Positions 3,718 to 59,030 of a stretch of DNA of 64,000 nt are shown here, in pieces. The notes under the pieces are model-generated. The model searched no databases. It was given only the letters and a program-made list of their open reading frames with translations, and was not told where the DNA came from. Each line of letters begins with the position of its first letter. The first letter of the stretch is position 1. The position numbers were made by a program, and so were the translations under genes. Source of the stretch: Calothrix sp. NIES-2098 (lineage in GTDB: Bacteria > Cyanobacteriota > Cyanobacteriia > Cyanobacteriales > Nostocaceae); the NCBI GenBank assembly GCA_002368175.1, contig AP018172.1, positions 93,599 to 157,598 on the forward strand, in the 5' to 3' direction.

Positions 3718-4411
3718 AAGATGTTTTCGTGGACATTCAAGTTAATTATCAGTGATGCATCCCTCTATTGGCTTAATTCTTTATTAAATCTCTATTTACT
3801 TGTACTATTTAATAACACATATAATTCGAGTTTTTGAGTGCCAATGGAAGTAGTTTTAGCTATCTGGCTAGCCCAATATATTAATTGAGCCACAGTAGCC
3901 TTTATCTCAAAAAAAGTTATATTAATATGCTAACTGATAGAGTACGGCAATTTTATCAGGTGCATCAGTTATTGTAAAAGCTACTTAATATAGTGTTTTT
4001 GTCATATTTTTCTACTCCTTTAAGATTATCTAAAAACGATCGCAACTAGTTTTGTTGCTCAATTTGATGATGAGGGAGTTAGTGAAACTCCTACGATCGT
4101 CAATAACAAGCCAGATATTATATTTGTTGACTGCTGATTCTGTACTTACGCACAGAGTAGGCAAATTTCACCCTTTCGCCAAACCTGAAACGAGAGACAG
4201 GGTATTTCTGTTGCAACTGCTTGTATAGCGAACTCTTACAGCAGAAGACTTTCACACAGTTATTATACAAGCCAAGAGTGACTAACTCAGTCCATCAATA
4301 ACTTTTCTGTTGGCAAACCACTCTTAGTAGTCGGCTTTATGGGACTTTTCTAGAATTTCCCCTTTAGCCAATAGTTATTATTGATTTTTCTTTATCTTCC
4401 TATCTTTCCAT

Positions 4412-6371: not shown

Positions 6372-6680
6372 ATTTTAGAAAAAATCTAAGTAACGGACTG
6401 ACACAGCTAAAATAATGCACTAAAAAATGTTCGTAGTTGCGCTTTAGCGCCTTCTAAACAATAAATTTAATGCCAAACTTTAGTTGTGTCACACCAGTAG
6501 CGCGCAATGCTCTAACCCAATGCACCAAAACCTTTGAATAGTGCGTTATGTCAAAAGCTAACGCAACGACAATAAAGCAAAAGCAACATCCACACTGCTT
6601 TTTGCCTCCCTATATGTATTCAAAAATCAAATATTAAGTCATAAATTTCTGTCTTGAAAAAAAGTCACAAGGCAGGGGAA

Positions 6681-6928
6681 TAGCAATTGATTACTCCAAA
6701 ATCGCAAATGTAGTATCAAAAATCGCAAATGTAGTATGCGAAACGGCAATTGAGTACTCGAAAATCGCAATTGATGACTCCGAAATAGCAATTGATCGCT
6801 CCGAAATGGCAATTGATTGCCCCGAAATAGTAATTGAGTACTCCAAAATGGCAAATGTGGTATGCGAAACAGCAACTGAGTACTCGAAAATCGCAATTGT
6901 GACTACCAAAATAGTAATTGCGGCTAGC
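6681..6928. repeat. Tandem array of about 12 copies of a 21-22-bp unit, approximately GAAAT(N)GCAATTG(N5)TCC, with a palindromic CAATTG core. Same family as 30275-30483.
   Basis: The periodicity was read directly, for example gaaatagcaattgatcgctcc/gaaatggcaattgattgcccc/gaaatagtaattgagtactcc. ORFs called here on both strands (6639-6896, 6691-6909) are artefacts of the repeat. Confidence 0.8.
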
Positions 6929-6959
6929 TATCCATCAAGAAGGCATCATTCTTTATAAT

Positions 6960-8210
6960 TAGGACTTACGCAATTGGCACAAATAGCAGGCAGGGCAAAG
7001 CCCTGACACGCGACAATATAAATCAAACCAAGCACATAAAAATACTTGGGCGCTTCAGTTGCTGAATTAAATAATTAGAAAGCAAGTTATGCTTGATTTG
7101 ATAGATAGTTTTGCCAGTTCTATAGGCTAAATTCTTTAACCTAACCCAAACCAACATTGCACAAGCAATATGATTTCTTTGGAGTCTAGCTTTCCGACAC
7201 TGGCAAGATTCAATGCCAGTTAGTTGTTTAATTTCCCTGTGAAACTCCTCTATTTTCCAACGAATTTTACACACCTGTTGTACAACATCCGTGGAACTTT
7301 GAGATAAATCGTTAGTGGCGACATAATCCGTTCTGTTGGTAGAAACAGTAACCCGGAATAGTTTCACTTTTTTATTAGCTGGGAATCCTTTAATTTTTAT
7401 GATTTTACCACAGTCTAATTCTTCTTGGTTCCATTCTAATAATTCAATCCGTTTATATTTTTCTTGACCAAATGTATCATCAACTAAACGATTATTTTTT
7501 AAAGGGCAATAATAAATTTTGTCTAAGCTATCAATATATAGCATTAAACTGTGTACCGCATACCATGTATCCATCAAAACAGTATCAAATGGTAAAAGCT
7601 TATGATACACAAGGTTTTGGAGCATATCTTTCACATGGTCTATCTTGGTTTTCCCATCGACATCAGGATTAAAAATTCGATAATCTATGACCCAAAATCT
7701 TTGAAGTGTAGGGTTGACATACACGCAGCTAACTACACCAATGCCTTTCAGGACACCATGCTCATTACCACTATATTGTCTTCTGACTATTTCTATTTCT
7801 TCAGAATACTTTTTATCTAAAACGCTATCATCAAATATGATGTAACCATTTTCATCAGACTCAACGACCTCTTTCACGTTATCCCATAGTAAACGAGGTG
7901 TTAATTTTTCGGTTTTCAAATAATAGTTAATTGCGTCATGACTAATACTCTCTAAATGCTCTGCCAAATTGGTAATTGTATAATTAATTTGACTACTTAA
8001 TAAATATTGGCAGTAATTAAGCTTAGTAAATCTCATTACCCTTAGCGAAATTTATCTAATATAACCTCTACCTATTTTCTCACGAATATTTCGATAGTAC
8101 TTCCAAGACAGCGACTTCTATTACGAAGGCAAAGCTTTCAAAATCAGATTTAATTAATACATATGTACTATGAACTAACGATCGCATTGTGCCAGTTGCG
8201 TAAGTCCTGA
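6960..8210 (-). mobile_element. Insertion sequence copy A (1251 bp) with an imperfect ~22-bp terminal inverted repeat TAGGACTTACGCAA(T/C)TGGCACAA and a 4-bp direct repeat TAAT at both flanks.
   Basis: The element is identical to the copy at 42904-44154 in inverted orientation. Its ends were defined by where the two copies diverge from their flanks. TAAT occurs at 6956-6959 and again at 8211-8214. Confidence 0.8.
7023..8036 (-). CDS. DDE transposase of the IS (337 aa), IS4/IS5-superfamily-like.
   Basis: Candidate DDE residues: D in IIFDDSVLDKKY, D in TVLMDTWYAVH, and E in WKIEEFHREIKQLTG (the YREK-like region). The protein is 100 percent identical to the ORF at 43078-44091. Confidence 0.8.
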   Translation of the reverse strand: MRFTKLNYCQYLLSSQINYTITNLAEHLESISHDAINYYLKTEKLTPRLLWDNVKEVVESDENGYIIFDDSVLDKKYSEEIEIVRRQYSGNEHGVLKGIGVVSCVYVNPTLQRFWVIDYRIFNPDVDGKTKIDHVKDMLQNLVYHKLLPFDTVLMDTWYAVHSLMLYIDSLDKIYYCPLKNNRLVDDTFGQEKYKRIELLEWNQEELDCGKIIKIKGFPANKKVKLFRVTVSTNRTDYVATNDLSQSSTDVVQQVCKIRWKIEEFHREIKQLTGIESCQCRKARLQRNHIACAMLVWVRLKNLAYRTGKTIYQIKHNLLSNYLIQQLKRPSIFMCLV

Positions 8211-30235: not shown

Positions 30236-30274
30236 TGAGGGTAAAGATTCATGCAAGAGGTCTAATTAAAGCTG

Positions 30275-30483
30275 CCGAAATAGCAATTGTAGTATCGAAA
30301 ACAGCAATTGTAGCCTCCGAAATCGCAATTGTAGTATCGAAAACAGCAATTGTAGCCTCCGAAATCGCAATTGTAGTCTCCGAAATGGCAATTGTAGCCT
30401 CCGCAACCGCAATCGTATTCTCCGAAATGGCAATTGTAATCTCCGCAACCGCAATTGACGTACCAAAAATAGCAAATGCGTAG
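30275..30483. repeat. Tandem array of about 10 copies of a 21-bp unit, GAAAT(N)GCAATTGTAG(N3)TCC. Same family as 6681-6928.
   Basis: gaaatcgcaattgtagtatcg / aaaacagcaattgtagcctcc / gaaatggcaattgtagcctcc ... It lies 200 bp upstream of the MVP gene. The heptad-repeat ORFs (30217-30483 +, 30249-30527 -, and others) are artefacts. Confidence 0.8.
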
Positions 30484-42903: not shown

Positions 42904-44154
42904 TCAGGACTTACGCAACTGGCACAATGCGATCGTTAGTTCATAGTACATAGGTATTAATTAAATCTGATTTTGAAAGCTTTGCCTTCGTAATAGAAGT
43001 CGCTGTCTTGGAAGTACTATCGAAATATTCGTGAGAAAATAGGTAGAGGTTATATTAGATAAATTTCGCTAAGGGTAATGAGATTTACTAAGCTTAATTA
43101 CTGCCAATATTTATTAAGTAGTCAAATTAATTATACAATTACCAATTTGGCAGAGCATTTAGAGAGTATTAGTCATGACGCAATTAACTATTATTTGAAA
43201 ACCGAAAAATTAACACCTCGTTTACTATGGGATAACGTGAAAGAGGTCGTTGAGTCTGATGAAAATGGTTACATCATATTTGATGATAGCGTTTTAGATA
43301 AAAAGTATTCTGAAGAAATAGAAATAGTCAGAAGACAATATAGTGGTAATGAGCATGGTGTCCTGAAAGGCATTGGTGTAGTTAGCTGCGTGTATGTCAA
43401 CCCTACACTTCAAAGATTTTGGGTCATAGATTATCGAATTTTTAATCCTGATGTCGATGGGAAAACCAAGATAGACCATGTGAAAGATATGCTCCAAAAC
43501 CTTGTGTATCATAAGCTTTTACCATTTGATACTGTTTTGATGGATACATGGTATGCGGTACACAGTTTAATGCTATATATTGATAGCTTAGACAAAATTT
43601 ATTATTGCCCTTTAAAAAATAATCGTTTAGTTGATGATACATTTGGTCAAGAAAAATATAAACGGATTGAATTATTAGAATGGAACCAAGAAGAATTAGA
43701 CTGTGGTAAAATCATAAAAATTAAAGGATTCCCAGCTAATAAAAAAGTGAAACTATTCCGGGTTACTGTTTCTACCAACAGAACGGATTATGTCGCCACT
43801 AACGATTTATCTCAAAGTTCCACGGATGTTGTACAACAGGTGTGTAAAATTCGTTGGAAAATAGAGGAGTTTCACAGGGAAATTAAACAACTAACTGGCA
43901 TTGAATCTTGCCAGTGTCGGAAAGCTAGACTCCAAAGAAATCATATTGCTTGTGCAATGTTGGTTTGGGTTAGGTTAAAGAATTTAGCCTATAGAACTGG
44001 CAAAACTATCTATCAAATCAAGCATAACTTGCTTTCTAATTATTTAATTCAGCAACTGAAGCGCCCAAGTATTTTTATGTGCTTGGTTTGATTTATATTG
44101 TCGCGTGTCAGGGCTTTGCCCTGCCTGCTATTTGTGCCAATTGCGTAAGTCCTA
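42904..44154 (+). mobile_element. Insertion sequence copy B (1251 bp), identical to copy A but inverted, flanked by the 4-bp direct repeat TATC.
   Basis: TATC is present at 42900-42903 and again at 44155-44158. Ends: TCAGGACTTACGCAACTGGCACAA ... TTGTGCCAATTGCGTAAGTCCTA. Confidence 0.8.
43078..44091 (+). CDS. DDE transposase of the IS (337 aa), identical to the ORF at 7023-8036.
   Basis: The protein sequence in the ORF track is 100 percent identical. Confidence 0.8.
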   Translation: MRFTKLNYCQYLLSSQINYTITNLAEHLESISHDAINYYLKTEKLTPRLLWDNVKEVVESDENGYIIFDDSVLDKKYSEEIEIVRRQYSGNEHGVLKGIGVVSCVYVNPTLQRFWVIDYRIFNPDVDGKTKIDHVKDMLQNLVYHKLLPFDTVLMDTWYAVHSLMLYIDSLDKIYYCPLKNNRLVDDTFGQEKYKRIELLEWNQEELDCGKIIKIKGFPANKKVKLFRVTVSTNRTDYVATNDLSQSSTDVVQQVCKIRWKIEEFHREIKQLTGIESCQCRKARLQRNHIACAMLVWVRLKNLAYRTGKTIYQIKHNLLSNYLIQQLKRPSIFMCLV

Positions 44155-44871
44155 TATCTATAGCTTATTTGGGATGGATAAATGAGAAAGTTTTATCCCT
44201 TGCTCATAGAAAACATTAGATAGTTTTGTTAAAAATGTCCTGCATCATAATTTACAGGCTTGCAGTTAAAAAAACTCTCCAAGTAATTATGGTAGATAAC
44301 TGAACTGCAAAAGTAAACCACCATTACTTGCTTGGTAAGTCAATTTAAGTAATCAATTATGAAAATTACTGTAATTAAGATTACGAATTTGAAAAATTCC
44401 AGTTTATTAACATAGAATTCTTAAATGGTAAGTATAATAGAGTCTCTAAAAAAAATCTGAGAGCAATGTTGCTGAATGAGGGATGCTTGCTGCATCTGTG
44501 CAGAAAACGTAAAACATTGTTTTGGTTATAGTTTCAAAGATAAGTCCGTCTCTAGACAGAAGATGAGGACTGCTGTCACCCCTGTGAGGAAGAGTCAGCA
44601 GGGTAATGATTAATTGATCCCAAAATTAGCCCAATCCAGAAAAGATTTAAGGTACGGTTATCTACTCAAGAAATCCTCCCTAAGCTTGCTGCTTAGGCAA
44701 GATAAGACACGGTACATTAAATATGTAGCCGACAAACAAGAATGTTACAGAGAGCTACTGCCAATCACAAACTCGCTTGCTTGCTACGGGCTGGCGTTAC
44801 TGACCAAGCATAACTCTCCTAGGATCATTGGGAGAAATCATCACCAATACCGTTTTTCAAGCGACTGTATT

Positions 44872-58774: not shown

Positions 58775-59030
58775 TGGTCATTTGTTATTGGTCAAGCTCA
58801 AACTTTCAGGTTCAAACTTTCAGGTTCAAAGGCTCATTAATAGAGCAAAAAGCCTCCTTAATGGAGTTATTACCCTCATTAATGGAGCAAAAAGCCTCAT
58901 TCACGGAGCTATTAACCTCGTTCACGGAGCAAAAAGCCTCATAAGTTTACAACGCAGTTTCTCCCTTGTCCCATTTCTCCCCACACTCCCCACACTCCCC
59001 ACACTCCTCACCTTCCCCACACTCCCTCTA
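58760..59030. repeat. Composite repeat block: a TTGGTCA heptamer array (58760-58794), a 15-mer direct repeat, an ~30-bp repeat family (ctcattaatggagcaaaaagcctc, about 3 copies) and a CCCCACACT 9-mer array (58975-59030).
   Basis: Read directly from the sequence. The ORF 58632-59078 across it is a repeat artefact. Confidence 0.75.

Follow-up and report, generated by a model that had tools for sequence, protein, structure and literature searches.

Arrays of short direct repeats are familiar from plasmids, as in parC of R1, the ~20-bp repeats of pSK41, the heptad iterons bound by omega and the 17-22 bp replication iterons. Cyanobacteria also carry small dispersed repeats (SDR), reportedly described by Elhai et al. 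in 2008. Two further systems come close to the repeats considered here. Heptamer-based tandem repeats are over-represented in the intergenic DNA of Nostoc, with polymerase slippage proposed as their cause (PMC4692102), and curved DNA upstream of the cyanobacterial rpoD1 and psbA2 promoters facilitates transcription, the elements of Microcystis K-81 being the one upstream of rpoD1 promoter 2 and CIT and RIB of psbA2 (PMC2758279).

We analysed a 64-kb stretch of Calothrix sp. NIES-2098 DNA (64,000 nucleotides, referred to as the window) that contains two arrays of a 21-bp repeat. We read these arrays as non-coding, slippage-maintained minisatellites of the Nostocales that possibly act as architectural cis-elements, and we give this statement as a whole a probability of about 0.45. 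That the arrays are non-coding minisatellites is, taken alone, very likely; an architectural function is a tentative proposal that we hold to be doubtful on balance. The two arrays are:

6679-6920, minus strand: array 1, ~11.5 units of 21 bp (Tandem Repeats Finder, core matches, units in register)
30275-30478, minus strand: array 2, ~9.6 units of 21 bp (Tandem Repeats Finder, core matches)

The presence of 21-bp tandem arrays at two loci, proposed in an earlier note on this DNA, was confirmed by Tandem Repeats Finder and by core counts. The arrays lie 23 kb apart and share the minus-strand unit consensus NCAWTTGYYATTTCKGMGWNY. With up to two mismatches, the pattern GCAATTG-N14-GCAATTG has 33 matches in the 64-kb window against 1.0 expected, just 2 of them outside the two arrays, and the 15-nt core CAATTGCNATTTCGG has 15 matches against 0.7 expected, all 15 within the arrays and all 15 on the minus strand. 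Array 2, whose end Tandem Repeats Finder places at 30475 or 30478, also has a 42-bp super-unit (4.8 copies, 86% matches); array 1 is more degenerate, with 73% matches at period 21 and higher scores for super-periods of 63 bp and 42 bp. The units are contiguous and run head to tail without the unique spacers that would define a CRISPR or an LTRR array. The same note had placed CAATTG in the unit consensus, which overstated its conservation: the hexamer is exact in 6 of ~12 units in array 1 and in 8 of ~10 in array 2, that is, in 14 of ~22 units altogether. Restriction-modification was rejected as a cause of CAATTG, the site being present at its expected frequency outside the arrays (34 vs 30.7).

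Repeats with a period related to seven are common in the window, where 15 of the 20 tandem arrays reported by Tandem Repeats Finder have a period of 7, 14 or 21. A third 21-bp array at 58828-58942 has an unrelated unit, AAAGCCTCATTAATGGAGCAA, with a different palindromic core, CATTAATG, and is set among STRR heptamers (TTGGTCA), a 14-mer array and CTCCCCACA 9-mers within one intergenic region. The family of arrays 1 and 2 is distinct from the 7-bp STRRs, as had been suspected, having a period of 21 with super-periods of 42 and 63 and only a weak similarity at lag 7 (autocorrelation 0.27-0.37, compared with 0.68-0.73 at lag 21). A heptamer ancestry of the 21-mer was also considered and dropped, given that lag-7 similarity is weak in array 1 and missing in array 2.

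The immediate surroundings of the arrays comprise two leaders, an insertion sequence and a major vault protein gene:

6921-6949, minus strand: degenerate 5' leader of array 1, reading ATGATGCCTTCTTGATGGATAGCTAGCCGC (alignment of array and flank)
6951-8210, minus strand: IS element of 1260 bp with a DDE_Tnp_1 transposase at 7023-8036 (repeat pair, Pfam)
30477-30503, minus strand: 5' leader of array 2, reading ATGCCTAAAGCGGGTTGCGCCTACGCA, a variant of the dispersed repeat GATGCC-N9-GGCTACGCCTACGC
30687-33314, plus strand: major vault protein (MVP) homologue, full length (Pfam Vault and MVP_shoulder)

The leader of array 1 is homologous to that of array 2 but contains a stop and a frameshift. The IS was inserted 1-2 bp from this leader, so that array 1 indeed adjoins an IS end, with a gap of 23-31 bp. 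This adjacency looks incidental, and the IS is a neighbour rather than a member of the repeat family, because a second IS copy at 42904-44163, which is 100% identical, inverted and 34.7 kb away, has no array next to it. The two IS copies are recent insertions and offer a substrate for inverting the intervening segment with array 2 and the MVP gene. The leader motif GATGCC-N9-GGCTACGCCTACGC is a small dispersed repeat that occurs at the 5' end of many arrays and, in other genomes, also alone, away from arrays and in either orientation; sites are found in contigs L010 (6337-6350), L028 (1967-1980) and L113 (0-based offsets 2380 and 2824, minus-strand view). It may correspond to a published SDR family. 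Its translation reads 'MPxxGYAYA', and it can thereby seed spurious ORFs.

Array 2 lies in the 5' region of a true MVP homologue, as had been noted, and ends 204 bp upstream of the ATG, with the array core on the strand opposite to the gene. The closest relative of this MVP is that of Nostoc sp. T09 (94% identical), and the next best matches, at ~84%, belong to filamentous cyanobacteria without heterocysts, among them Aerosakkonema, Microseira and Leptolyngbyaceae; 2550 homologues were found at E <= 1e-50, often under the database name 'colicin uptake protein'. The patchy presence of the gene in Nostoc suggests that it was horizontally acquired. Further genes near the arrays encode FecCD, a DnaJ-pentapeptide protein, DAHP synthase, the IS transposase, a GNAT protein, ABC transporter components and Na/H exchangers. 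The window also contains an inverted repeat of 420 nt at 36292-36711 and 37657-38076 (72% complementarity), one arm of which lies near the alignment of a T09 solute-binding-protein gene (Pfam SBP_bac_1); it may represent two diverged paralogous genes in opposite orientation.

To place the two arrays within a family, one genome per species was scanned for three GCAATTG at 21-bp spacing, which listed at least 120 matches, and membership was assigned to units within 5 mismatches of the window unit. Among the matches listed, all 17 family loci belong to Nostocales (Nostoc, Calothrix, Tolypothrix and Aulosira); the other matches are different 21-bp repeats that merely share the GCAATTG heptamer. 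The family thus consists of intergenic 21-bp minisatellites that were found here, among the matches listed, in Nostocales only. All of its arrays lie between ORFs in heterocystous cyanobacteria, and a single chromosome can hold several dispersed loci, with at least three in Calothrix NIES-2100 (at 0.38, 4.44 and 5.55 Mb) and at least two in N. carneum (at 1.31 and 4.02 Mb). Their neighbours are unrelated (MutS, a CobN-like protein, a histidine sensor kinase, alpha-2-macroglobulin and TrpRS), and the arrays lie 5' of some genes and 3' of others. We found no description of this 21-bp family in the literature, the published SDR families being outside this comparison.

In N. carneum (contig L088), ~80 bp are duplicated on both sides of the array (3880-3980 and 4260-4330 in the minus-strand view). 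By eye, this segment resembles a promoter followed by the start of a gene whose N-terminus is Uma2-like, and the same segment also precedes arrays at other loci (L036, L108 and L002), with ATG changed to CTG. The presence of the segment on both sides of one array and ahead of others suggests that arrays may have spread together with flanking DNA through recombination. The short-read Logan contigs L121, L122 and L125, which contain the MVP and DAHP synthase genes of the window, end in or beside arrays; assemblies are thus broken up by the arrays, leaving a partial ORF to be called where the contig stops.

We then compared arrays at orthologous sites. Over 27.5-36.2 kb the window shares synteny with Nostoc sp. 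T09 (86-93% identity), and T09 has an array at the same site upstream of MVP, with 11.0 copies (89% match) compared with ~9.6 in the window, unit variants that are mixed and homogenised differently from those of array 2, and a far-side flank that has been replaced while the array was kept. The second case, which was unexpected, is a subfamily of arrays located upstream of a conserved 142-aa gene (MSLKTRGSAAVDKAQ...) with 238 homologues, almost all annotated as hypothetical proteins; among the 120 homologues listed, the named ones come nearly all from heterocystous cyanobacteria, and some genomes have two paralogues. Nine loci of this gene were examined (L010, L113, L028, L015/L123, L030/L130 and L126-L129), five of them from the scan (one re-fetched as L130), L123 through a protein match and three picked for diversity, and they include N. 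punctiforme, Fortiea contorta, Tolypothrix tenuis and Fischerella PCC 9605. At 9/9 loci the gene is preceded, at a distance of 115-286 bp, by an array of 6-15 units of 21 bp that always has the same orientation. Homology between these loci is confined to the block from array to gene, which includes three conserved boxes between the two, GAGTAAAAAYACAG, TAAATCCACAAAACTACYCATCTCA and ACTCCACTATSTTGAAA; the DNA outside cannot be aligned. The 142-aa loci are flanked by variable DNA in which toxin-antitoxin, XisH/XisI and HicAB genes abound. A mobile module made up of array and 142-aa gene and flanked by GGCTACGCCTACGC was dropped as an explanation because the position and orientation of the motif are inconsistent across loci.

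The units themselves turn over at these sites. Orthologous units differ (CATTTGCTATTTCGGCGACAG, TCGCATTTGCCATTTCGGCGA, ATTACTATATCGGCGAACTCA and others), and the consensus units of orthologous arrays are conserved at 0.69, compared with 0.66 at synonymous sites of the neighbouring gene, so that there is no clear purifying selection on the unit sequence. What would speak for constraint is the persistence of the array and not the sequence of its unit. The copy-number variation between strains that the earlier note had asked for was found, also between close strains (9.4 vs >=11 for the pair L123/L015 and 7 vs 10 for L036/L108, in addition to T09 and the window). These comparisons show that each lineage has resized and homogenised its arrays on its own, by steps of 21 or 42 bp, which is what replication slippage or unequal recombination produces.

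The main rival to our reading follows from these data. The arrays might be neutral or selfish minisatellites, made by slippage in permissive intergenic DNA and persisting since their loss is slow, a possibility that we regard as serious if less probable than not. The similar divergence of units and synonymous sites, the copy-number variation, and the diverse and unrelated contexts all agree with neutrality, as do the degenerate state of array 1 beside an IS and the abundance of 7-, 14- and 21-bp tandem repeats in the window and in Nostoc genomes. Neutrality does not readily account for the nine 142-aa loci, from Nostoc to Fischerella, each with an array at a comparable distance ahead of the gene and in one orientation amid surrounding DNA that is no longer alignable, nor for the retention of the array upstream of MVP in T09 despite the replacement of one flank. 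The period, moreover, is strictly 21 bp across the family, with length changes that are compensated.

Both arrays contain open reading frames of heptad repeats, among them the minus-strand ORF of array 2:

30249-30527, minus strand: heptad ORF xTIAISE, 92 aa, or 84 aa from the inner ATG at 30503 (ORF listing)

This ORF starts with an ATG-led MPKAGCAYAFAIFG followed by xTIAISE heptads, and the plus-strand heptad reads EIAIVVS. The claim that all six frames are open did not hold, ORFs being found in four frames of array 2 and in two to three of array 1, with only two frames nearly stop-free across 16 family arrays. We asked whether the minus-strand ORF could be a real small protein of beta-strand heptad repeats, like the Hep_Hag/YadA-head repeats of adhesins. 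Over the 16 arrays, 1252 codons of the TIAISE frame include 1 stop; the T09 orthologue retains both the ATG and the MP..GCAYA N-terminus, and its intact, annotated 109-aa ORF starts as in array 2; gene callers report the heptad ORF in the Logan and T09 assemblies; and NCBIfam BimA gives a weak match (best E 2e-4, 15-20 bits vs a cut-off of 800). Against this, the antisense frame is equally open, and neither the TIAISE frame (27.7% observed vs 25.7% expected, p=0.29) nor this antisense frame shows an excess of synonymous change among distinct within-array variants. At the nine orthologous loci, the real gene beside the array shows pairwise identities of 0.88/0.93/0.66 at codon positions 1/2/3, in contrast to a flat 0.73/0.67/0.66 for the array consensus units. 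The depletion of stop-creating variants is similar in each of the three sense frames, and the TIAISE frame is open because the consensus is far from stop codons and not because of selection.

Start codons and homologues tell the same way. The start is missing, or is followed by a stop or frameshift, in L103 (TAA between ATG and array), L113 (1-nt deletion between ATG and array), L126, L028, L036/L108 and array 1 of the window, whose TIAIS frame has an in-frame TAA, a frameshift and no usable start codon. Most units of L028 have Asp in place of the 'core' Ile (consensus AIVDSAI). The apparent N-terminal motif is the dispersed DNA repeat described above, which is also found without arrays. Pfam returned nothing below E 0.1 for the heptad ORF, a search of 5.8 billion proteins retrieved two array translations, and HMMER against 1.84 billion representative proteins retrieved only unrelated low-complexity heptads, e.g. 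DEIAVYG and GTVAIHQ. No signal peptide and no partner genes were detected. A Hep_Hag/YadA-type heptad-repeat protein was rejected as no Pfam or NCBIfam model matched above its cut-off, and the protein-coding reading in general was rejected as purifying selection in one frame, a consistent start and a homologous protein family were all lacking. We thus consider a small protein very unlikely, and the proposal that the heptad ORFs are artefacts is borne out by the synonymous, codon-position, stop, start-codon and protein-database tests alike.

We also considered that the array acts at the level of RNA, as a transcribed tandem-repeat RNA such as a protein sponge or a structured leader. Such a role would fit the orientation kept relative to the 142-aa gene at all nine loci, and for array 2 the fold of the minus-strand RNA is somewhat more stable than that of its shuffles (z = -2.4). 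The plus strand gives z = -0.7, Rfam 15 gave 0 matches at gathering score in the whole window, and promoter and terminator scans found nothing above shuffles at either array. In addition, the array lies upstream of the promoter-like conserved boxes of the 142-aa gene, and loci differ in how the array is oriented to its neighbouring gene, MVP being opposite to the array core. With no Rfam match and unremarkable folding, an RNA element was rejected, and we regard this role as the most improbable of those considered.

The earlier note had further argued from the palindromic CAATTG that the array is a platform for cooperative protein binding, with dimers on CAATTG along one helical face, as in a centromere or partition site or a silencer; an iteron-like site was considered along with it. 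Three features speak in favor of such a platform: the period of two helical turns, a conserved ~13-15 nt core that has the size of an operator, and the location of arrays directly upstream of a small conserved gene in every genome examined, as in the autoregulated ParR, omega and iteron systems. The palindrome, though, is not a conserved feature, because CATTTG, CCATTG or CAATTA takes its place in the orthologous arrays of other genera. The conserved core of the family is the asymmetric WTTGCYATTTCGG of ~13-15 nt, which removes the argument for a dimer on a palindrome. No par operon (ParA or ParM plus a centromere-binding protein) is adjacent to either array, no rep gene lies within several kb of either, and BLAST against the 72,556 plasmids of PLSDB gave no array match, to which the low-complexity filter may contribute. 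A partition centromere should occur at one or few sites, and this candidate is unlikely in view of two arrays in the window and the several loci in Calothrix NIES-2100 and N. carneum; replication iterons are not supported either, for want of a nearby rep gene and a plasmid match. Taken together, dispersed loci, unrelated housekeeping neighbours and the absence of par and rep genes nearby speak against the arrays serving as centromeres or iterons. AlphaFold predicts the 142-aa protein to be a three-helix bundle with a disordered basic tail (pLDDT 75), and Foldseek matched it to no DNA-binding fold in the PDB (best E 0.77); these predictions neither support nor exclude it as a binder of the array. 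Overall, a dedicated protein platform of this kind appears improbable.

The period itself leads back to an architectural role. As proposed earlier, 21 bp equal two helical turns and keep successive units on one helical face. A dinucleotide wedge model with provisional parameter values was applied in 190-bp windows over the 64 kb and predicted the 21-bp arrays to be its most curved windows, namely arrays 1 and 2 and the unrelated array at 58828-58942, the last ranking first. With these parameters, the predicted ratio of end-to-end to contour length was 0.37-0.61 for the arrays vs 0.92 ± 0.06 for the background. By this prediction, the arrays share with curved upstream elements a sequence-directed curvature above background. 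Shuffled units tiled at 21 bp gave 0.80 ± 0.18, with 11% as curved as the real unit, and 11 of 13 family consensus units fell below the 35th percentile of their own shuffles, the other two being predicted straight. The predicted curvature would thus come mainly from the two-turn period and not from the unit sequence.

With a period of two helical turns, small sequence-dependent bends of each unit would add in phase, and the array would form ~200 bp of intrinsically curved, one-faced DNA beside a promoter region, here that of MVP. Where it is active at all, the array might work through this curvature as an architectural cis-element; alternatively, it might provide a platform for a nucleoid-type protein or a putative sequence-specific protein reading the asymmetric core. 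The heptad ORFs would be by-products of the repeat. The two-turn period and the persistence of arrays at one position in several genera point to an architectural cis-element as the most likely function, if there is one. We also entertain a bolder and rather unlikely model, in which the arrays are an order-wide cis-regulatory device of heterocystous cyanobacteria: a putative Nostocales-specific factor would read WTTGCYATTTCGG on the phased, curved platform, the ancestral site would be that upstream of the 142-aa orphan gene, and secondary copies, e.g. beside MVP, would bring further genes under the same control, with copy number tuning the output.

Bacterial tandem repeats are usually short-lived, and it is unusual for an array with changing units to be kept upstream of one orphan gene across the genera examined, from Nostoc to Fischerella. 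The family therefore provides a handle on whether repeat-encoded DNA shape or a putative binding factor regulates genes of multicellular cyanobacteria, and, if neutral, the arrays would still be useful as a copy-number marker for strain typing. Its recognition also matters for annotation, as arrays are sometimes called 'hypothetical proteins' (109 aa in Nostoc sp. T09, 126 aa in Calothrix FACHB-156); recognising the family removes such spurious genes. The arrays also break short-read assemblies.

Compared with the systems introduced at the outset, the arrays resemble the STRRs in being intergenic tandem repeats that are dispersed, restricted to or enriched in Nostocales and variable in copy number, with a period that is a multiple of seven. 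They differ from STRRs in a unit of 21 bp instead of 7, in a conserved 13-15-nt core of their own and in the positional conservation of some arrays across genera. With plasmid centromere and operator arrays they share the tandem arrangement of direct repeats, a unit length close to two helical turns and, in some cases, a position immediately ahead of a small gene; unlike these, the 21-bp family occupies many dispersed chromosomal loci, no par or rep genes lie near the arrays of the window, and the 142-aa protein encoded beside some arrays has no predicted DNA-binding fold. The leader GATGCC-N9-GGCTACGCCTACGC, present with or without arrays and in either orientation, has the character of a very small dispersed repeat, whereas the array itself is tandem and not made of dispersed single units. 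Finally, the arrays share with the curved promoter DNA of cyanobacteria a phased, sequence-directed bend upstream of a promoter region, which is here predicted. The elements of Microcystis K-81 are not exact tandem repeats, and the curvature of the arrays, known from prediction only, would derive mostly from their 21-bp period.
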